From Squalus acanthias (taxonomy: Eukaryota), in NCBI GenBank assembly GCA_030390025.1, contig CM059446.1:13950001-14014000 (forward strand): 64,000 bases of DNA. Direction: 5' to 3'. Every line of letters starts with the position of its first letter. Position 1 is the first letter of the stretch. Made by a program: the position numbers and the translations under genes. Positions 20,238 to 64,000 of this stretch are shown piece after piece. The notes under the pieces were generated by a model that was not told the DNA's origin, did no database searches, and was given only the letters and a program-made list of their open reading frames with translations.

Positions 20238-22497
20238 TGAACTCGTAGAATGAACTAATACTCGGATTGCTTGACTAACAACAAAGAGCCTCTTTGATTT
20301 TGGTCTTAGAAGCCTGTCTTTGGAAGTCCCAGAAAGTTGTATAAGACCTGGCAGGGTTTTCCTGTAGAGACTTTAGATCCCTTGTTTTGATTGCCTGTTG
20401 CCATATTGAGACAGAAAACGGGACTCTGTAGACCTTTGCCGTATAACATTTCATTGCAAAGAACTTCTAAAGATTCACCACTCTTTTATTCTTTTGAAAC
20501 AGTTAATGTAATAAGTCATATACTGGGCTTTTAGCTTCTTCATGTGTCTTTCTGCTTTTCTGTAATTACCTTGTAAATAAATTTGACTGAATTTTGGTCT
20601 GAATGATACAGCCTGACAGTGTGGCATTTATCACCTTTCGGAGTGGATAGGATAACTTGGCGGGCAGTTCTGTGGTCTCTGGTACTTAAGACTGTGGTAA
20701 AAGTACAGTTGTTAGACCTGTGGCACACACATCACCATTCACATCTTATATAAGTTTGCAAGTTTCAGATCATTCGAAATGCCAGTCTTAAATAAAGTGC
20801 CTTTTTGCTGTAAGAACAAGTTAAAATTGTCGAGAGAAAAGCCCAAATTGCAACAGTCGCATCAAATTAATATCAGCTGATCAGCTCCATATGTCGTATC
20901 AAACCAACATATAGCCTTGGATTAAAATGTTTCTGAAATGTGCTTTTCAACTACTCCCACCAGCGTACAATACTCAAACCTTAATGTGACAAGGAAAGCT
21001 ATAATCTGGTCTATTTGACCAAACATGTTCACCTATATCAAAATAAGGAATGTATTAAAAAAAAGATATTGACATTTAAAGCCTATATAGATTGTTCCTC
21101 AATAGTTACTGCTTAAAAATGCATTCCATTCCTAGGACCTTTCTAGTGGCATTTTGGCTGATATATCTTGCTATCTGACTGGTGACATTTCATTGACTGA
21201 ATTGATGTGTTCAAGAAACGACTTTCATTATAAGCAACCTCATAGCCTTGATAAAATTCCATCTAGCAGGGTGAATGTTAGTTGCCACTATTACATTTTA
21301 TTTGTTAATCTCAACTGTGCCACAAATTATTTTTTGCTTATTTTGATGGTTTGACATATTATTAATATGACCAGAGGATGCTGCCCATTATAATGATCCA
21401 GGTTGAACACAAAGCAAATTTGGTTGTGCTTTCTGATGCTTTCCAGAGCAGGGCAGTTTCAAAAACAAAGATCAAACTGACGGAGCTGTCAGTTATTTTG
21501 CATTATCTACTGCACCTCTCTATTTTGATTAACCAACTGTAAAACAACCAGAGCTTTATGTTGTTGCATTCACATGAGGGCTGCTTACAAAGTGGCCGCA
21601 GTCTCGGCAGAAAGCTCATTTCAGGGCTCATCGGAAAATAAATTGTTGGTTGTCAGATTTATACTGCACTGCACCATGGGTCTTTTGTAGGCTGCCACGT
21701 TGGTATCCAGGCAGCAGTGCAGTGGCACGTAACCACACGAGCTTCCCCTGTTGTCGGAAAGAGATTCGGGTCAAACGACTACTAGTGTTATTCTAAGCTT
21801 TCACTTATATAGTGATATCACCATGAGAAACCTGTGACCAGAGATACAAGGTTCATATCAATAAAACCCCGGGAGTGGGAGGGGGAGGAGGTGCAGGACT
21901 GCCAGAATGTGGTTTACACCAAAATAAACCTTGTGGAAAAAAACAGAGCTGAAGATATCAACACAAATCTGGAGCATTTGGTCACTTGAGTAAACCTCAT
22001 GCTGTCTTAGAACCTTATATTTAAAAAGTGAAAGACAGATTGTGTATACATGTGTGTTACATTTTCTTCAAAGCACAAGGCAGTAATTCTACTGCCAAAA
22101 TTGTGCCTTTGGCATCCTGGATACACCAGTAGGTAAAGGTAGCATCAATTTGGTCAGCAGAGCCACAAGCAAGCTGGATGCATACATGCCAACTGTTTGA
22201 ATTTGACATGGAGAGTCAGTGTCACAGGGATTTGGTCCACGGATGAAAATCAGCCCGGACCATGCACCTCCCCAAGTGCCGCTCTCGAGCTCCTACCTGT
22301 TGCGTTTGACAGGGCTGTATAATGTGGGAGAGAATCCCTGTTCACAGCGGACAGCCCTGTCAATTCTTAATAGGGTCTCCAGCAGCGATTAAAGGAAGGT
22401 GGAGCGATAGGGGAGGAGGGTGTGGGGGTATTGTGAGCAGCACTTTTCGGAGGTGGAGAGGAGAAGAAATCCCAGGATCACTATCTGAAGAAAGGTG

Positions 22498-22724
22498 CCA
22501 TGATGCGGAGATGCCGGTGTTGGACTGGGGTGGACAAATGTGAGAAGTCACACAACACCAGGTTATAGTCCAACAGTTTTATTTGAAATCACAAGCTTTC
22601 GGAGCGCTGCTCCTTCGTCAGGTGAAGTCCTGACTTCACCTGACGAAGGAGCAGCGCTCCGAAAGCTTGTGATTTCAAATAAAACTGTTGGACTATAACC
22701 TGGTGTTGTGCGACTTCTCACATT
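22498..22724 (-). mobile_element. Palindromic Penelope-like mini-element, copy 1
   Basis: 95-bp inverted arms (22535-22629 / 22632-22726, 1 mismatch), ~37-nt unpaired tail, and 12-bp TSD TGAAGAAAGGTG (22486-22497, 22725-22736). Confidence 0.85.
22636..22672 (+). ncRNA. Minimal type I hammerhead ribozyme motif (mirror copy on - strand at 22589-22625)
   Basis: TCAC-CTGACGA-A-GGAGC-AGC-GCTCC-GAAAGCTT-GTGA: stem I TCAC/GTGA, core CUGANGA and GAAA, stem II GGAGC/GCTCC, palindromic AAGCTT in place of stem III. Confidence 0.75.
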
Positions 22725-23328
22725 TGAAGAAAGGTGGAGAGAGATAGAAATAACGAAAGAGATAGAGATGCAGACAGAGACAGAGAAAGCCATTAGCAAC
22801 AGTTGGTGGAGGGGAGGAAAGGAAAGAGTGCATGCCCTCAGATCCTCCTAAAAAATAAATGATACGCCTTCAACACCAACCACCCCCTTTCAGCCTTTCT
22901 TGCAATTAAAGCAAAGGAATATTGGGTATATCTACAGCTTACATTACAAGCCCATGTCCCAATGTGCTTTCAGTGCAATTACTTTTTTTCCACATGTCAT
23001 GGGGCCATTTTTGAGGCTGCATCAGTTTTTTTGGAGCTGATCAATCAGCTTTTGCTAGTTTTCTCGGTTGGCATGTATGTTACTGAGACATAACAATTTA
23101 CCCAGTGAAAGAAAGATTTTTAGTTCAAATAAAGTTGATATGTTCGTGGATAGATGTCACGATCATAGCTGAGCCAAATTCTGTGCTCGCCTGACTTATT
23201 TATATAGATGTACCTGTGACAGGAGTTGCTGGAAAGTGATCAGGTATGCAAAGAGTGACCGATTTTCCCTTCCCGCATACTTGAGACCTATTATAGAATC
23301 ATAGACGAGAAAATAACAAGGTCCATCT

Positions 23329-29489: not shown

Positions 29490-31000
29490 AGTAACTTGCA
29501 TTCATACAGTGCCTTTAATATAAAAAAGATCCCAAGGTGCTTTACAAACAAGTGTTTTGCCAGAGGTGGGCAGCATTACAGAGGTGGAAGTAGGCAACCT
29601 GTGTCTGGGTTTTGTCAGCTTACAAGTGGAAGCATCCTCATGTCTACGATAATGTCGCCATGGAGTAGCATGTAGATGAGGAAGAGAAGGGAGCCAAGAA
29701 TAGATCCTGGTGCAGCTTCAGAGGCAACGGTATGGCAGTAGGAAGCTTCTTCTTAGGCGGAACCGAGGATGACTTGCTTCCACATTAAAAATGAGTTCGC
29801 AGGTGACTGATGAGTCCAATGCGGTCTCTGTCACAGGTGGGGCAGACGGTGGTTGAAGGGGCGGGTGGGTGGGGTGCTTGGGTTGACGTGCGCTCCTTGC
29901 GCTGCCTGTGCTTGGCTTCCGCTTGCTCCCGGCGAAGAGATTCGAGGTGTTCGGCGCCTTCCCGGATGCTTTTCCTCCACTTTGTGCGGTCTTGGGCCAG
30001 GGATTCCCAGGTGTTGGTGGGGATGTTACACTTTTTTAAGGAGGCTTTGAGGGTGTCCTTGAAGCGTTTCCTCTGCCCACCTGGGGCTCTCTTGCCGTGC
30101 CGGAGCTCCGAATAGAGCGCTTGGTTTGGGAGTCTCGTATCGGGCAATCGGAAAATGTGACCTGTCCATCAGAGCTGATCGAGCGTGGTCAAAGCTTCGA
30201 TGCTGGCCTGAGCAAGAACACTGACGTTGGTGCTAAGCTAAGCCATTGCTGGAGATGCTCTGGCTATGATTGAGTAGGTAAGAATGGAACCAAGAGAGGG
30301 CAGTGCTACTGAGCTGGACAATGGAGGAGGATGGTGTGCTCGACCATGTCAAAGGCTGCAGAGAAGTTGAGGAGGACAAAGAGGGATAAAGCATGATGGT
30401 TAAGGTTACAGTGGATATCATTTGTAATTTTTCCAAGAGCTAGTGCAATGCTGTGGCAGGGTGGAAACTTGATTTGAGAGATTCAAACGGAGTTGCGGGA
30501 AAGATGAACATGAACACATCTGACAATACATTCAAGGATTTTGGAGAGGAAAGAGAGGTTGGTGATGATGCAGTTGGTTTCAAGGACAGAGGGGTTGACG
30601 ATGGGTCTTTTGAGGAGGAGGTGATGATGGGAGTTTTGAAAGAAAGCGGGCCAGCACTCAAGGAGAGGGAAGCATTTACAATGCCAGCTAGCATGGGGGC
30701 CAGGAAGGGAAGTTGTCTGGTCAACAGCTTTGTGAGAATGGGGTCAAGGGAGCAGGAGGTGAGTCTCATGGACAAGATGAGTTTGGTGAGGGAATGAGGG
30801 CAGATGGGAAAGAAATTTAGCAGAGATGTGGGTTCAGGGCTAAGGCAGGGGATGATTTGGCATGGTGGGAAATGGGAAGTGGGGAAGCAACAGAGGCAGC
30901 TGAACGAATGGTCTCAATCATAGTGACAAAAAAGTCCTCGTTATTGGAGGTGAGGGTGGAGGGGGCAAGGAAGAGGGGTCTCAATAAGGCAGTTGGCAGT
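29490..31000 (-). mobile_element. Decayed, internally deleted L2 LINE (RT region) interrupted by RTE
   Basis: Minus-strand frames give SCSLDPILTKLL, a YADD-like motif (~29620), LSWFHSYLLNHSQ; L2 tail rc at 29490-29548. Confidence 0.8.
29748..30234 (-). mobile_element. Relatively young RTE-clade LINE 3' end
   Basis: QL.WTGHIFRLPDTRLPNQALYSELRHGKRAPGGQRKRFKDTLKASLKK..CPTCDR..IGLISHLRTH, (AAG)n tail, AAGCT duplicated at 29743-29747 and 30235-30239. Confidence 0.9.
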
Positions 31001-41023: not shown

Positions 41024-41877
41024 ACTGTTAATATGGTGATTAGAAAATGTTTACACTTCAGTATCTATTCATTTACCCCATACCTGCATTTGCCAACCAC
41101 TTACAAGATAGCCTTCCTACTTTCCAGCCAAAAATCATAAAACAAAGTTGGGGTGAATCAGATACATGAGGGACAACATTAAACCGCACCATAGGCTGTA
41201 CAATAGCAGATGACAGAACTTGAAATAGCTGACCAACTTTACAAGATTTTGAGAAGCCACACAAGAGTTGGCTCTGCATGGGTCATATCACCTCCTCTTG
41301 ATCAAGACTGCCATATGTTCTTAAGCATAGCTTAGGCTGTATGATAATTGCGCTTCTAGCTTCTGCCATCCCATTTCCCTCTCAAACTCTTAAGTCTGTT
41401 GCTCCCTTCTTTCCAATATAAGATTAAGTTTATACTGCTAGCTAACTTTGAATCACTATCCTTGTGACATGTCATCTTGCTAGAGGAAAAGGTACTGATT
41501 TCCATTTATAAGATTAATTTTTTTAAAAGAACACCCGGTCTCTCACTCCCCAATTGTGTTCATGCACAATGCAAAAAACAGTACTAAACTGGAGTAAAAT
41601 CAAATTTCCCATTCTGTGGGACATAACCACATCACTTCCGAGAGACTAGTAAATTTAATTTTAATGCATGTTGTTTCATGCACTGCTGTTACGCTGCACA
41701 AATATAACTGGGGAGCGGAAAACCAGAAATTAAATTATTTTGTTTCTCCTTCAGAAAAGAAATCAGTACCTTTACTTCCAGTAAAGTGACTTGCCTGTGA
41801 GGACAGAGATTCGAAATTACATAGGATTTTAAACATATCCATAGATTAGCAGAGTGGAAGCCAGAGATCAAGAGCAT

Positions 41878-44084
41878 GAGAGGAGGGGAAGACTAGCACT
41901 GGAGAGAGGAGAGTGGAAGACTAGCACTGGAGAGAGGAGAGTGGAAGACTAGCACTGGAGAGAGGAGAGTGGAAGACTACCACTGGAGAGAGGAGAGTGG
42001 AAGACTAGCACTGGAGAGAGGAGGGTGGAAGACTAGCACTGGAGAGAGGAGGGTGGAAGACTAGCACTGGAGAGAGGAGGGTGGAAGACTAACACTGGAG
42101 AGAGGAGAGTGGAAGACTAACACTGGAGAGAGGAGGGTGGAAGACTAACACTGGAGAGAGGAGAGTGGAAGACTAACACTGGAGAGAGGAGAGTGGAAGA
42201 CTAACACTGGAGAGAGGAGAGTGGAAGACTAACACTGGAGAGAGGAGAGTGGAAGACTAACTGGAGAGAGGAGAGTGGAAGACTATCACTGGAGAGAGGA
42301 GAGTGGAAGACTAACACTGGAGAGAGGTGGGTGGAAGACTAGCACTGGAGAGAGGAATGGAAGACTTGCACTGGAGAGAGGAGAGTGGAAGACTATCACT
42401 GGAGAGAGGAGAGTGGAAGACTAACACTGGAGAGAGGAGAGTGGAAGACTAACACTGGAGAGAGGAGAGTGGAAGACTAACACTGGAGAGAGGAGGGTGG
42501 AAGACTAACACTGGAGAGAGGAGGGTGGAAGACTAACACTGGAGAGAGGCGAGGGGAAGACTAACACTGGAGAGAGGAGAGTGGAAGACTAACACTGGAG
42601 AGAGGAGAGTGGAAGACTAACTGGAGAGAGGAGAGTGGAAGACTAACACTGGAGAGAGGAGAGTGGAAGACTAGCACTGGAGAGAGGAGAGTGGAAGACT
42701 AACACTGGAGAGAGGAATGGAAGACTTGCACTGGAGAGAGGAGGGTGGAGACTAGCACTGGAGAGAGGAGAGTGGAAGACTAGCACTGGAGAGAGGAGAG
42801 TGGAAGACTAACACTGGAGAGAGGAATGGAAGACTTGCACTGGAGCGAGGAGGGTGGAGACTAGCACTGGAGAGAGGAGAGTGGAAGACTAACTGGAGAG
42901 AGGAGAGTGGAAGACTAACACCGGAGAGAGGAGAGTGGAAGACTAGCACTGGAGAGAGGAGAGTGGAAGACTGGCACTGGAGAGAGGAAAGTGGAAGACT
43001 AGCACTGGAGAGAGGAGAGTGGAAGACTAATACTGGAGAGAGGAGAGTGGAAGACTAGCCCTGGAGAGAGGAGAGTGGAAGACTAGCACTGGAGAGAGGA
43101 GAGTGGAAGACTAACACTGGGGAGAGGAGAGTGGAAGACTATCACTGGAGAGAGGAATGGAAGACTTGCACTGGAGAGAGGAGAGTGGAAGACTAGCACT
43201 GGAGAGAGGAGAGTGGAAGACTAACACTGGAGAAAGGAGAGTGGAAGTCTATCACTGGAGAGAGGAATGGAAGACTTGCACTGGAGAGAGGAGGGTGGAG
43301 ACTAACACTGGAGAGAGGAGAGTGGAAGACTAACACTGGACAGAGGAATGGAAGACTTGCACTGGAGAGAGGAGGGTGGAGACTAGCACTGGAGAGAGGA
43401 GAGTGGAAGACTAACACTGGAGAGAGGAGAGTGGAAGACTAGCACTGGAGAGAGGAGAGTGGAAGACTAACACTGGAGAGAGGAAGACTATCACTGGAGA
43501 GAGGAGAGTGGAAGACTAGCACTGGAGAGAGGAGAGTGGAAGACTAACACTGGAGAGAGGAGGGTGGAAGACTAGCACTGGGGAGAGGAGAGTGGAAGAC
43601 TAGCACTGGAGAGAGGAATGGAAGACTTGCACTGGAGAGAGGAGGGTGGAGACTAACACTGGAGAGAGGAGAGTGGAAGACTAACACTGGAGAGAGGAAT
43701 GGAAGACTGGCACTGGAGGGAGGAGAGGGGAAGACTAACACTGGAGAGAGGAGAGGGGAAGACTAGCACTGGAGAGAGGGGAGTGGAAGACTAACACTGG
43801 AGAGAGGAGAGTGGAAGACTAGCACTGGAGAGAGGAGAGTGGAAGACTTGCACTGGAGAGAGGAATGGAAGACTAGCACTGGAGAGAGGAATGGAAGACT
43901 AGCACTGGAGAGAGGAGAGTGGAAGACTTGCACTGGAGAGAGGAATGGAAGACTAACACTGGAGAGAGGAATGGAAGACTTACACTGGAGAGAGGAATGG
44001 AAGACTTGCACTGGAGAGAGGAGAGTGGAAGACTAATACTGGAAAGAGGAATGGAAGACTAGCACTGGAGAGAGGAGAGTGGAA
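41878..44084 (+). repeat. Purine-rich minisatellite, 28-bp unit, ~80 copies
   Basis: (CTGGAGAGAGGAGAGTGGAAGACTA[G/A]CA)n with 26- and 27-bp variant units. Confidence 0.98.
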
Positions 44085-55459: not shown

Positions 55460-56590
55460 CCTGGAAGAAGTTGCTGATGATCTCCTGCCTGATGGCACGT
55501 GTTGCTGATGGTGGATGTGTCCAGGTCGACCTCCTCTCTCTCCTGGGCATCTTTGCCTTGATCAGGGGACTGTTTTTTTCGACCCCCCTTCTTCACCTTG
55601 TGTGTTTGGAAGGCAAGTCCCATTACAAAGGGAGGATGTAGCAAGCCACTACAATTCTTCAATTCTTTGCTGGACTGTATTGCAGGGCTCCCCCTGACCT
55701 GTCCACCCCATGCAAACAAGACGTGAGAATTTCAATGGTCTGCTCAACTATTTTTCAGATAGCATCCAAGACTTCGTTGTACCTGTTTTCAGCTGTCTTC
55801 AGCCTCTGCCCTTGGATGACAAAAGGGAGTCATTTGACAAAGCTGCCATGTGTACATCTAGTCTCCAATCAGCCATTTTGCTCTGGCTGATCAGTGTAGG
55901 TATCCTGGATTGCCTGAGGATAAAAGAATCATGGCTACTTGCTGGATAGCACACGTTGACGACAACAACAACAACTTGTATTTATATAGCGCCTTTAACG
56001 TAGTAAAACGTCCCAAGGCGCTGCACAGGAGTATTTTAAGATAAAAAATTTGACACTGAGCCACATAAGGATAAATTAGGTCAGGTGACCAAAAGCTTGG
56101 TCAAAGAGGTAGGTTTTAAGGAGCGTCTTAAAGGAGGAAAGAGAGGTAGCAAGGCGAAGAGGTTTAGGCAGGGAATTCCAGAGCTTAAGGCCTAGGCAAC
56201 AGAAGGCACGGCCACCAATGGTTGAGCGATTATAATCAGGGATGCTCAAGAGGGCAGAATTAGAGGAGCGCAGATATCTCGGTGGGTTGTGGGGCTGAAG
56301 GAGATTACAGGGATAGGGAGGGGCGAGGCCATGGAGGGATTTGAAAACAAGGATGAGAATTTTGAAATCGAGGCGCTGCTTAACTGGGAGCCAATGTAGG
56401 CCAGCAAGCACAGGGGTGATGGGTGAACGGGACTTGGTGCATGCAGAATGAGATGGGTTGCATCACATGACTGTACATTGAGTGAATGAAATCATGTTCA
56501 TGAAATTGATGCTACTTTCAGAAGGGGCTTTAATTATCACATCAATGACTTGTACTTGGGGGGGTCCAGCCACTCTGAAGATCTCTGTCT
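55460..56590 (-). pseudogene. HARBI1-like transposase remnant split by L2
   Basis: FRVAGPPQVQVID..IKAP, FHSLNVQ..CDATHLILH | VNVCYPASSHDSFILRQSRIP..KWLIGD*..MTPF..ENRYNE..VEQTIEIL..DRSGGALQYSP. Confidence 0.85.
55961..56440 (-). mobile_element. Young L2 LINE 3' end
   Basis: Open C-terminal frame LHWLPVKQRLDFKILILVFKSLHGLAPPY..LRSS..GGRAF..LWNSLP..FKTLLKTYLF; (TTG)n tail. Confidence 0.95.
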
Positions 56591-57085
56591 CTACTGATTA
56601 AACATAACTCTCTTTAAATTTTCTGCAAGATTCAATACCTTGAAATACTCAAATATTTGTAGTGGGAGTGACTTCTAGCCAATGCAATGCTACAAATTGT
56701 AAGCCAATATGATCTTTTACCTTCCCGACCTTTTCCCAACTGTGGGACATTGTATTGGCGCACCACCACCACCTTTATAGTGAAGGTGATTTGTAAGGAT
56801 AATAATTTGGCAGAAACTCAGGAGAAATCCCTGGGACGACTCGGTCATACCGTCAACCACCTTCATGCGCATGCTGTGTGACACACTTAAGGCAGTCGAC
56901 TAAGAGTTACAGTGGGGTCATAGGAAGGAAATCATGGCTGCCATTTGGGATGGAGTTTTGACAGAAGGGCTTTCAGTCCCATTTCCCTTACCAAACCTCT
57001 TCAGTCCTGTCTGAAAATGGGCTGTTTTTGCAAGGAAAATTCAGGCCCAGGAATCAGCCCACCATGCAGTGCATTTGCCCACTCA

Positions 57086-57136
57086 AGTGAGAAGTCGCAA
57101 CACCAGGTTATAGTCCAACAGTTTTATTTGAAATCA
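57086..57136 (-). mobile_element. Single truncated arm of the palindromic Penelope-like family
   Basis: gtgagaagtcgcaacaccaggttatagtccaacagttttatttgaaatca; CACTCA on both flanks (57080-57085, 57137-57142). Confidence 0.8.
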
Positions 57137-59029
57137 CACTCAGGCATCGGACAGGAACGTAAGAAAGAGATCTTTTTGCGAACAAATGCAAGTGAGGTCT
57201 GTCTGCACCTGAATTTGTTATATTTTGCTGGCACAAATGGAGGCCAGAATTGGGGTCCAGGTCTTCAACGGATGTTCTGTGTCACAATCACTTTGCAGCT
57301 TGCAACAGTTGGACAGTAAATGGATCCTCAGATTTCTTTCATCTTTGTTTGCAAAGAGGGTGGTTTTGATTAGGTAAAGAAAGATGAACGTAAGCACATC
57401 AGCTATGATTAGAAGCTCCATTCCCTCTCTCTCTCTCTCTACACCCCCAGCTGTTTTTGAGGAGTCTGGGGCAAGATTCATTTGCTGTCACTGATCTACG
57501 AACTGGGTCAGAGGTTAACAGAAGGTCAGGCTGTGACTGAAGCTGACACTTTGATCCCCTGTTGTCTGCTAGGAATCCAACAGGTGGCATGACATCACCA
57601 CACTTTAAAGAATATAGATGAGCGCTAACTTCATTTGCATGCAAAAGAGTGTAAAATACTTTTATACACACTTGAATCACCCAAAGCAATTCAAACCCCT
57701 TTGGCTTATTTCTAGATCAAACGAAGGATCCGCTTTCACAAATACAGAGATGTTATTTTGCTTTAGAGACGTGCTCACATCTCAAAATGGATTTTAAATT
57801 AAAGAAACGTGCATAGGACAGGTTTAGCTGCATTACATGTGAATTCCATCCTTCTGTGCGAAGTCATCAGATGTTTATCTTGAACCTTCAATGTTTTTTC
57901 TTGTTAACTCTTCTCATATCCTCTCACCATTTGGCTTTAATATCCTAAATGCTTTTTTAAGCTAACTCCTGTCTGCCCTGACTAATTTCCTCTCTAGCTG
58001 AGAGATCAGAGGCTTTCCTCACTGCTGTTCCTTTGCACCGGTGAAGCCCCTCGTAATCCTGCTGCTTGTCTACAATTAATCTTTCCAGTTGCCACATTAT
58101 TAACACTACCACCCACAGACAGAGAATGCCTGAGCTCCACTGGACATTAGCTCCTGCGGGAGAGGCAGAAATGTCAATCAAGCTCTGGTCAGAAAGCTCC
58201 CTGCTGTCAACATCAGAGATTTCATACCCTTCCGACTGCTGATCAAACATTTCTTTCCTGGAAGATTAATTCACAATCCCACCCATTTCCTCCCATATCC
58301 TCTCTCCTTTTAAGTTTATTCAATGACCCATCCTGTATCGAAGGAAGAGGCTCTGGTACCCTTTAAAAATTGAGCAAACCAAAGTAGAAATCCCGTGTGC
58401 TGTAAAATTTATTTTCCCTTTAAAGCTGATCAGATTAGGCATGACCAACAAGGGTTCTCTTTGATCGTATGCTATAGAAGTTCACACAGAAAAATAATCA
58501 CAAGACAAGGTTGATTTGGTTGACAGGACTACAGTAAACCTCCTTACAAGCTAATCGATTTTACTTTGATATCTTTTTGTTATTCTTTTCTCAATTGGCA
58601 CTAAGGCACTTTGCAAGCCACAAAAAGCAAACCTCCTGAGACCTAAGCATCTATGCTGTCATTCATCATTCCATTTGAAAACATTATGCACTAATGTGGA
58701 TAACATCCTGTGCTCCTTGAGTAAGCACTTCTCTATCCAACCTTGAGCCAAAAAGCATCACACGCTTACACACAAAGCATAAAGACAAGCCCTTTTCATT
58801 AATTCAGGTGGACATACGCCACACCCTATAGTGAGCAGAAGAGGGTGCTGTGTGCAGTGATTTGCATTTAAGACAAGTCAGGTCACAAAGTCTAATGAAG
58901 GGAAGCCATGAGGTACCACAATGGCCCCACCACCCCCTGTGCCAAATGTATCATATCTGCCAGGTGTTAGTAGTTCCCTTGTTACTTCATAAATAATTAA
59001 AGATTGTATTACAAAATAGAACACATATA

Positions 59030-61670: not shown

Positions 61671-62880
61671 AAGAAAAGATGTTGAACCAGATACCCAACT
61701 TCCTCACAGGGTACAAACATGAGCTCATTCAACTTTCTAAAGCAGGACGTATGCAGCAAGTTCACTTGGTCCCATTGTTTCTCGTCTTCATCAACAGTAC
61801 ACATTTAACATTTTAAAGACATAAGGGAATTTCTGATGCAATTGTAAGTGAGAGACATTATTACTTGGCACTGGAAATGCTAAAACTGCTGACTAAAATG
61901 GCTGGGCAAGGATTAACAAACACACTACCTGGAAAAAATGCAACTTCTAACCAGAAACCCAACATAAAACTGAAAGATGCTTAAGCCTAAGGTGGGTGCA
62001 ATACGAGCTAACTAAATGTTGTGCAGAGAAGGAAGACTTGGGGATTTCAACACTGTGATGAAGTTCTTTATTTGCAGAATACATATATAGAGTACAGTCG
62101 GTGATAAAAAAACATATAGAAAGTTACAGGGAAATTTGAGAACTATCAGCCAAGGAAAAAAATACCTGAGAGAGATGTTTTTAATTCAACAAAATAAGAA
62201 ATTGGGAAATTGATTACTAACTATATTATGGTGTTGTAGAACCCTGCAAACACTGTGATTTGATGAATAAAAGGAGTTGCATGATTTGTGCTTGAATTGT
62301 GTTTAGAGTCAGAAACAACAATGCCGGATAGAGGCTGCTGAGAGCTGGACCCCACGTTTAAGAACGTTGCCGAAATGCTATATGGTAAGAGCAGCTGAAG
62401 TTTCACAGTCTCAGATGAACCTAGCAAACACAAGTCCAAGCTAGTTACAGCTGATTTGGTTGACTACGGTTTTGTTTTTATAAAGAAACACCCTAAATTA
62501 TAAGACTCAGTGTCCAACATTTAGACAGGCAAGTATGGCTTAAATATAATTTTAATGTAAAAGTACGAGAAAAAAAAACTTCATTTATATAGTGATTTAT
62601 ATATCTCAAAAAACATCTCAAAGCATTTCACGTACAATCCAAATTAAATATCAAAATCAAGTTCTATAAAAATTTAAATATACTGTTCTGACTAAATGGC
62701 CAAAATGATGTTCATCCTAATATTGAAGAGGACCATCATGAACTGTCTATTTATGATCATTTGTTCACAGGAAGCAGAATCATTATCCTTAAAAATGTAA
62801 TGCCAGAGATGATGCGTTCATTATGGCCTTACTGGGACTGAAAAATAGCAATGGAAAATATCTCTCTCTCTATGAACCTT

Positions 62881-63143
62881 AATGAGAAGTCGCACAACAC
62901 CAGGTTATAGTCCAACAGATTTATTTAATTTTACAAGCTTTCGAAGCAGTTCGCTCCTTCGTCAGGTAAGTTAGGTAAATTGTGAATTCTGGGAGATTCT
63001 CTCATTGCTAACTTACCTGATGAAGGAGCGAACTGCTTCGAAAGCTTGTAAAATTAAATAAATCTGTTGGACTATAACCTGGTGTTGTGCGACTTCTCAT
63101 TTTTGTCCACCCCAGTCCAACGCCGGCATCTCCACATCATGAC
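62881..63143 (+). mobile_element. Palindromic Penelope-like mini-element, copy 2
   Basis: 94-bp inverted arms (62881-62974 / 63008-63101, 1 mismatch), 33-bp spacer, ~40-nt tail, and 13-bp TSD CTCTATGAACCTT (62868-62880, 63144-63156). Confidence 0.85.
63013..63051 (+). ncRNA. Minimal type I hammerhead ribozyme motif (mirror copy on - strand at 62931-62969)
   Basis: TTAC-CTGATGA-A-GGAGC-GAACT-GCTTC-GAAAGCTT-GTAA. Confidence 0.75.
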
Positions 63144-64000
63144 CTCTATGAACCTTCTCCATGCTGGAGATTGGTATCAAGTGCCTTCCACACTTTCCGT
63201 TCTCTGCACAGATGTTGAAGTTCCCCAGTCCTTTTCATCTAGCCGTATACTTCCTTGCCTATTACCTTTACCCTTTCCAGACAGTAACAACCCCAACCAC
63301 TTTCTTTTTGACTCGAGAATAATGTGCCCACAACGCTATTGTTCTCACTGGAATCAACCCCATAACTTCTCTCTTTTCTTGTGCTAGCTCAAGGATGCTC
63401 TTGTTAGGATGTAGAAAATTCATTCCAACCATATTGGGGTTAAAGGAGTGTCTGCACTAAGTGAGAGATGTTATATATTTGCTGACATTATAGATTATAT
63501 TCTGTGTGTGGTTTTTGTAATGTCCACTGCAAATTACAGATGAAGTAACCACAGCAACTCAAGAAGATTGAAAATCAGGAACCACCACCATCTCAAACAG
63601 AAGAAAAGACACAAAATGGCAGATTGATCAAACTTTTATAAAGCTGAAAGACTATGTTTAATAAAATGTGGCTTATAGTAAATGAATACAAGACCATACT
63701 AAAAGGGGGATCTAAAAAAAAGTTTGTAAGTAAACACTAACATAGCTTTATGGTTAACATACTTTCTTTACTAAGAGATGCAATCATATTGACACAATGC
63801 ATAGAAAAGAGTGAATCTTATGCTCTATCTAGCTGTTAAATTAGGTTATTCATATGTATCTGTTGAGTACAACGAGTTAGGACCAGTTCTGCGCTCAGTG
63901 TTTTAAGGCTCTGTGTATTACATGAAGCTTGGCTAGAAATAAAGACACCAAGTGGTGAAGAACCTGCTGAATGTGCTGAGACATCCAAAACCACCATTTA

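Follow-up and report, generated by a model that had tools for sequence, protein, structure and literature searches.

The insert at positions 62868-63156 of the analyzed stretch of DNA (64,000 nucleotides in full; hereafter, the window) is almost certainly a 5'-truncated insertion of a Penelope-like element (PLE), built as a head-to-head pair of 5'-truncated element ends inside one target-site duplication (TSD; Table 1). We infer, with somewhat more confidence than doubt, that the element's enzyme cut a nick in each target strand, at sites 13 bp apart, and that reverse transcription was primed from each nick. The layout of the insertion and the motif it carries are already known, and copy 2, as we denote this insert, is ordinary as an object. 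The formation of inverted PLE copies and the role of the hammerhead are named as open questions in PMC11167929 and in PMC8557442; a high-copy, seemingly lineage-confined subfamily, whose inserts are probably polymorphic and whose empty sites can be recovered, is material that could separate two-ended priming from fold-back of a single cDNA and map the target preference.

Table 1. Coordinates of copy 2, copy 1 and a third terminus fragment in the window
Feature	Positions	Strand	Basis or remark
Copy 2, left TSD copy, 13 bp	62868-62880	.	Target-site duplication flanking the insert
Copy 2, inverted arm: element terminus, short 3' end without tail	62881-62974	-	In 4/4 runs, short ends are concentrated at the homologous positions 63097-63099
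Left-arm minimal type I hammerhead motif (predicted)	62931-62969	-	Core CUGACGA
Spacer, 33 nt: upstream pseudo-LTR sequence of the tail-bearing copy	62975-63007	+	Contig depth in run X2
Right arm: element terminus, sense orientation	63008-63101	+	
Right-arm minimal type I hammerhead motif (predicted)	63013-63051	+	Fits minimal-hammerhead traits in PMC4209133
Stem I	63013-63016/63048-63051	+	Right arm of copy 2
Core; extra A	63017-63023; 63024	+	Right arm of copy 2
Stem II; loop II	63025-63029/63035-63039; 63030-63034	+	Right arm of copy 2
GAAA; palindromic AGCU; predicted cut	63040-63043; 63043-63046; after U63047	+	Right arm of copy 2
Tail, 42 nt, on one arm only (long 3' end)	63102-63143	+	Long ends cluster at 63139-63141 in 4/4 runs
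Copy 2, right TSD copy, 13 bp	63144-63156	.	Contigs of four runs begin matching exactly at its first base
Short (CT)n run, left edge of the target site	62861-62871	+	Similar run at copy 1 in the same relative place
Copy 1	22486-22736	-	Same layout, opposite orientation, other subfamily type
Copy 1, TSD, 12 bp	22486-22497 and 22725-22736		
Copy 1, arms	22535-22629 and 22632-22726		2-nt center; tail on the left
Third, shorter terminus fragment	57085-57138	-	Without hammerhead or tail

Architecture of the insertion

The two arms of copy 2 are identical at 93 of 94 bases, the sole mismatch falling on the free core position N7 of the hammerhead motif, and local inverted repeats with arms of at least 25 bp number two in the window (copies 1 and 2) versus none in five shuffled windows. 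The 13-mer of the TSD occurs just twice in the window (the chance at a fixed site is ~2e-8), and both this duplication and the 33-nt spacer were found where the preliminary description of this DNA had placed them; the 42-nt tail is an addition to that description. The inserted element sequence comprises only the last 169 and the last 94 nt of the element and contains no ORF; a Pfam search of the 150 longest of the 238 ORFs in the window yielded sub-threshold matches only, none above the cut-off.

Both palindromic inserts adjoin a short (CT)n run (22737-22743 in the case of copy 1), which in each lies to the same side of the tail-bearing arm; such a position at the edge of a (CT)n run is shared by 0.13% of random sites, a post hoc estimate with n=2. 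Elsewhere, the window holds many dispersed SINE-like repeats, a large purine-rich minisatellite with a 28-nt unit and strong strand skew (41764-44000, ~2 kb), and ORF remnants at 29788-30168 and 56079-56462 that have no Pfam match above the cut-off and in which we see a likeness to the 3' ends of LINEs of the RTE and L2 types.

The hammerhead motif

The motif in copy 2 comprises the core CUGANGA, the GAAA and UH segments, and stems I and II. The traits of minimal hammerheads are present as well: an extra A (A63024) follows A9, G63025-C63039 corresponds to G10.1-C11.1, and positions 15.2-16.2 are the palindromic AGCU, the self-duplex of which has a computed energy of -6.5 kcal/mol. Stem II has 5 bp, position 17 is U, and the two motifs of the insert are ~43 nt apart; N7 is U in the right arm of copy 2 and C in its left arm and in copy 1. 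The predicted assignment as a hammerhead is based on the core letters, the two stems, the published traits of the minimal form and the context, not on a curated model, and a match to an Rfam model does not define the minimal form. Rfam gave no matches over the window at the gathering score; at the copy-2 locus, up to E 10, it gave three (MIR396, MIR5062 and Teg49), none of them a hammerhead, which we rejected as chance hairpin resemblance far under the cut-off. The predicted folds of the monomeric motif are weak (z from -0.8 to -2.9). If the insert were transcribed by read-through, the predicted structure of the RNA is one long hairpin of -177 kcal/mol (z -26), and, because this 94-bp hairpin would mask the motif, the inserted copy is probably inert.

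Between copy 1 and copy 2, stem I changes from UCAC/GUGA to UUAC/GUAA, that is, one C-G pair is replaced by U-A; stem II keeps five pairs, one of them G-U; loop II changes from AGC to GAACU; and AAGCUU is common to both. The compensatory pair in stem I, the G-U pair in stem II and the changed loop had all been noted in the preliminary description and are borne out by this comparison. The same description held that AAGCUU and the core were retained, which is the case for the former, the core not being identical at N7. In the context of copy 1, neither stem I change falls at a CpG.

The element and its protein partner

Relatives in the records of other species suggest that the terminus belongs with an RT-endonuclease ORF. 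The closest DNA relative among the matches listed, L115 (80% over 74 columns, E 7e-11), contains the end of the same ORF ~210 nt upstream of its hammerhead; most relatives of this ORF come from sharks, and RT domains are present in some of them. One of these proteins, P0028, is a shark gene model that has absorbed element sequence and begins just past the linker; its GIY-YIG domain is 85% identical over 109 aa to that of P0014, which carries RVT_1, and is followed, ~80 residues further on, by a translation of the hammerhead-to-tail sequence of the window (E 4.7e-6). A putative RT/GIY-YIG partner with the same terminus, the search for which had been proposed as a check, was found indirectly, via P0028, P0014 and L115. 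In two scanned loci (L022 and L012), a Penelope-type RT ORF or a GIY-YIG ORF is followed directly by the same motif class. Of 34 homologues, many of which are fragments, 15 carry the CX2-5CxxC linker, P0014 and P0022 among them. This linker speaks for Neptune or Nematis and against Poseidon, and the element is probably of the Neptune type. Judging by these named relatives, the host is probably a cartilaginous fish.

Several shark host-gene models (P0015, P0016, P0019, P0028, P0033, P0039 and P0040) contain the endonuclease sequence of the element, and the host-gene names among them include XRCC5, PPP1R12A-like, FAM210B, septin 5a, FSTL5, USP8 and FAM204A isoforms; these are either annotation artefacts or cases of exonization. 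At another scanned locus (L027:1505-4206), the same motif class lies downstream of an RT-like ORF, and the frame before this ORF weakly matches a GDSL lipase, at a score below the cut-off.

Subfamily, abundance and age

The genomic abundance of the element was assessed in four whole-genome runs, one with the same organism label as the window (X2; this label accounts for ~80% of the sequence words of the window) and three from other organisms (X6, X8 and X9), using contigs that cover the right half of the insert only. The summed contig depth of the spacer in X2 is 0.41-1.57 million, compared to 12.5 on the unique flank (these values are depths and give no copy number), and lies between 0 and 22 in X6, X8 and X9. 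The spacer is multi-copy upstream sequence of the element, on the strand of the tail-bearing arm, which answers the question, raised earlier, of whether it derives from there. At stem I position 63050, the copy-2 letter accounts for ~97% of the summed depth in X2, and the copy-1 letter G for 39,503 of 1,438,059 (2.7%), with copy-1-type contigs possibly under-counted at the 80% match threshold; in X6, X8 and X9, the share of G is 93%, 98% and 89%, respectively. The variants of copy 2 are the letters of a high-copy subfamily rather than of a single copy, so that the view of the two arms as carrying copy-specific variants stands for the comparison of the two window copies and fails genome-wide. 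The copy-2 subfamily seems to have expanded in the host lineage, and the stem I change is most likely fixed in its master elements.

Loose contig ends with mixed flanks form the two clusters given in Table 1 in all four runs: the element has two preferred 3' ends, one tail length (~42 nt) apart. The consensus of the loose ends in X2 suggests, at 63035, a third subfamily with the stem I 5' strand of copy 2 and a different stem II and loop (agreement 0.58). In contigs of X2 and X9 at 63056-63102, the short end is joined back to 63056-63071 with few letters in between, one of these contigs having a depth of 1333 (X9); these joins are short partial repeats, in tandem, of the terminus and may derive from it in the manner of a satellite.

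Each run has one flank contig that matches the window from 63144 (the first base of the right TSD copy) and extends for 1313, 905, 865 and 227 nt in the four cases, unlike the tail. From these contigs, read from the TSD onward and able to conceal a second allele, we infer what appear to be empty sites in another sample under the same label and in the three further organisms. The X2 contig differs from the window at 63245 and therefore represents another haplotype. Given that the site appears empty in four runs, the insertion is probably polymorphic and very young.

Covariation in the hammerhead stems

A general motif scan of metagenome contigs, with a pattern that leaves everything free apart from the core and pair 1 of both stems, identified at least 119 loci; among the matches listed, 79 have a stem II of at least 4 bp, 32 have no stem II, and 8 with a 3-bp stem II fall in neither class. 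Families were delineated by average linkage at two thresholds, which yielded 21 and 18 families among these matches and the same result; the family statistics ignore relatedness between families, and a few chance matches remain among the families. In the 21 families from the matches listed, stem I pair 2 is Watson-Crick in 18 (shuffle mean 5.6; p ~5e-5) and stem I pair 3, the pair that is changed in copy 2, in 15, with all four pair types represented (shuffle mean 5.8; p ~5e-5). The corresponding values for the control, 30 families without stem II from the same matches, are 11/30 and 10/30, at chance, and a stem I of at least 3 bp is found in 16/21 families compared to 5/30 controls (Fisher p 3e-5). 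Stem I pairs 4-6, Watson-Crick in 11, 6 and 6 of the 21 listed families, do not reach significance. When groups are instead selected on stem I, again among the matches listed, 19 result, and across them pairs 2-5 of stem II covary. Chained clustering of the 79 loci produced 6 groups and no significant pair (p 0.07-0.7). The family-specific 19-mer had no matches in metagenome contigs, and the general motif had two in viral contigs, neither with stems.

Judging from this covariation, selection on the RNA fold holds for the motif class, as already stated, along with covarying hammerheads, in PMC4209133, and selection on the stem I pair of copy 2 in the host lineage is likely. The suggestion in the preliminary description that the fold is under selection in active lineages draws its support from the families, at the level of the class, and not from the two copies in the window. 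That the stem I change is a coincidence, produced by drift of two transitions with no selection on the fold, seems to us quite unlikely. The change is one pair between two copies, and in the three-sequence comparison of copies 1 and 2 with L115, where two compensatory pairs are seen, 66 of 500 shuffles reach the score, which is not significant; furthermore, the monomer folds are weak, and catalytic mutants had no effect on insertion in vitro (PMC11167929). Coincidence is at odds with the covariation seen in the listed matches for pairs 2 and 3 of stem I (21 groups) and pairs 2-5 of stem II (19 groups), with the controls at chance, with the location of both changes outside CpG, and with the second compensatory pair, which is contributed by L115.

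Origin of the palindrome

Under the favored scenario, a staggered cut leaving 13-nt 3' overhangs would provide a free 3' end on each side of the target. The nick at the right end would prime at the distal internal start, giving rise to the tail, the right arm and the 33 extra upstream bases, and the nick at the left end would prime at the proximal start, 42 nt further in, giving rise to the tail-less arm; the two short cDNAs, copied from one RNA or two, would be linked through their truncated ends. Element cDNA can be read on the top strand from 62881, where it begins at the short-end start, and on the bottom strand from 63143, where it begins at the long-end start. We favor priming from both nicks because the enzyme of the Anolis element primes both strands, the spacing of the hammerhead is similar, and short ends are common in an unrelated family. 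As assayed in vitro, the Anolis element cuts both strands and extends both, with two internal starts bounding the tail, and its enzyme, a predicted dimer, requires no homology to the cut (PMC11167929). In the unrelated family, 21 of 27 copies among the matches listed were scored, with 11 short and 9 long ends, and many short-ended copies in these matches have no inverted partner in view; therefore, the short end is an ordinary start site. Among the observations that count against priming from both nicks, the 2-nt center of copy 1 resembles a hairpin tip, and the ATT motif preferred by the Anolis enzyme is at neither target site of the two copies. At L039:1-1211, the terminus of an unrelated family lies in nested inversions, and one arm lacks the hammerhead.

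The same head-to-head layout is found in L091 and L119, and a head-to-head pair in L101, among the matches listed. The preliminary description inferred repeated generation of fold-back inserts; the repeated origin of head-to-head inserts is supported by these loci and by the two window copies with their different TSDs and centers, and fold-back becomes one of two live mechanisms. In that alternative, the single-template reading of the preliminary description, which we regard as a close contender but on balance doubtful, a single cDNA that starts with the tail and takes in the whole spacer folds back, primes itself and is copied as far as the proximal site; there it is halted or cleaved and attached to the left flank. 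Fold-back predicts outright that the tail-bearing arm is the longer one, which two-ended priming only permits, and this arm indeed reaches further upstream in all three scorable inserts (copy 2, L091 and L119), a count that omits L035 (no clear tail aligned), L039 (nested inversions) and copy 1 (2-nt center). The near-identity of the arms and the tight center of copy 1 are likewise in its favor, and self-priming, in that case on an antisense template, is the interpretation that PMC3846280 gives to junction palindromes. It is opposed by the junctions, with no overlap on the testable side in copy 2, a blunt join in L091 and ~7 nt of filler in L119, and by the extra stop or cut that would be required exactly at a known RT start site. 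The C at N7 of the left arm, which accounts for less than 3% of the X2 depth and is the copy-1-type state, is a weak hint of a second template that CpG decay explains as well; the one base at which the arms differ is CpG versus TpG in each window copy and does not discriminate between fold-back and two-ended priming.

An older insertion, or two insertions, with the arms kept identical by gene conversion within the hairpin would account for arms that are closer to each other than to copy 1; we consider this barely credible, given that one TSD encloses both arms, that the site appears empty in all four runs, one of another sample under this label and three of further organisms, and that the shared letters are the subfamily majority. 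Homogenization is unnecessary because the orthologous sites are apparently empty and the insert is probably very young. The initial proposal that the arms were made from a single template or homogenized is not borne out by the argument given for it: two RNAs of the subfamily would look alike. A non-autonomous unit, MITE-like or retrozyme-like, that moves as a whole palindrome and inherits its hairpin is suggested by the occurrence in 64 kb of two palindromes that resemble each other and each have a TSD, and is nonetheless very improbable: the centers are unlike (2 versus 33 nt), the TSD lengths are 12 and 13, the tail lies outside the inverted repeat and on one side only, the motifs are inverted instead of tandem, and the terminus is tied to an endonuclease ORF in relatives. 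Two known kinds of element were rejected as candidates for copy 2, namely a MITE or other non-autonomous DNA transposon, as the 42-nt tail parts the right arm from the TSD and the TSD length (12 and 13) is not fixed, and a non-LTR retrozyme, as the units are inverted and are not at least two tandem direct units.

A broader reading, which we put forward as speculative and unlikely, is that the minimal hammerhead is retained chiefly because it pairs RNAs: AGCU would join two element RNAs in a dimeric RT-endonuclease complex, and each nicked strand would prime on its own RNA at one start site. If true, RNA pairing would account for the head-to-head inserts, for the one-sided tail and for selection on the fold even though cleavage is dispensable for insertion in vitro. 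A search of titles and abstract beginnings, with subscription papers outside its range, found no paper that proposes such a role. Young polymorphic stubs with subfamily-diagnostic letters would permit a genome-wide two-template test.

Comparison with known systems

In L1 twin priming, both nicked target strands prime cDNA, which results in an inversion inside one TSD, and the inverted part comes from non-overlapping upstream RNA. Unlike this case, both arms of copy 2 copy the same 94 nt. Another parallel is with insertions of endonuclease-positive (EN+) PLEs, for which an inverted, 5'-truncated, head-to-head copy, a tail at one end and a short TSD of variable length are the standard layout, as described in PMC8557442 and PMC3846280; copy 2 is alike, with a tail of 42 nt compared to 30-40 nt and a TSD of 13 bp compared to 8-10 bp in the rotifer examples. 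Pairs of minimal hammerheads on opposite strands are already present in the accessible part of PMC4209133, which does not mention sharks by name. Among the papers searched, none gives a shark-specific account of such an element. Non-LTR retrozymes, according to bioRxiv 10.64898/2026.07.22.740005, are non-coding, contain a type I hammerhead and derive from PLE pseudo-LTRs, in all of which they resemble the present insert; they consist of tandem direct repeats, whereas copy 2 is an inverted pair with a tail and a TSD.

With respect to PLE clades, the combination of a C-terminal GIY-YIG domain and a CX2-5CxxC linker, which PMC8557442 describes for Neptune, is the same in the shark proteins tied to the terminus; according to the same source, Nematis also has such a linker. 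The location of both window copies at a (CT)n edge fits the microsatellite bias proposed for Neptune, with two sites only. The Poseidon element PAc of Anolis carolinensis (Frangieh et al. 2024, PMC11167929), the main text of which does not treat the inverted arm, has a hammerhead followed by two 3' ends that bound the tail, and the same order is found here. Counted from A9, the predicted cut in copy 2 is at +25 and the long end at +117 to +121; in PAc, counted from the start codon, the respective positions are +26 and +111 to +118, the mapping of A9 onto the start codon being our own. Copy 2 differs from PAc in that there is no ATG where stem II begins, and Poseidon lacks the CX2-5CxxC linker that the putative partner ORF possesses.
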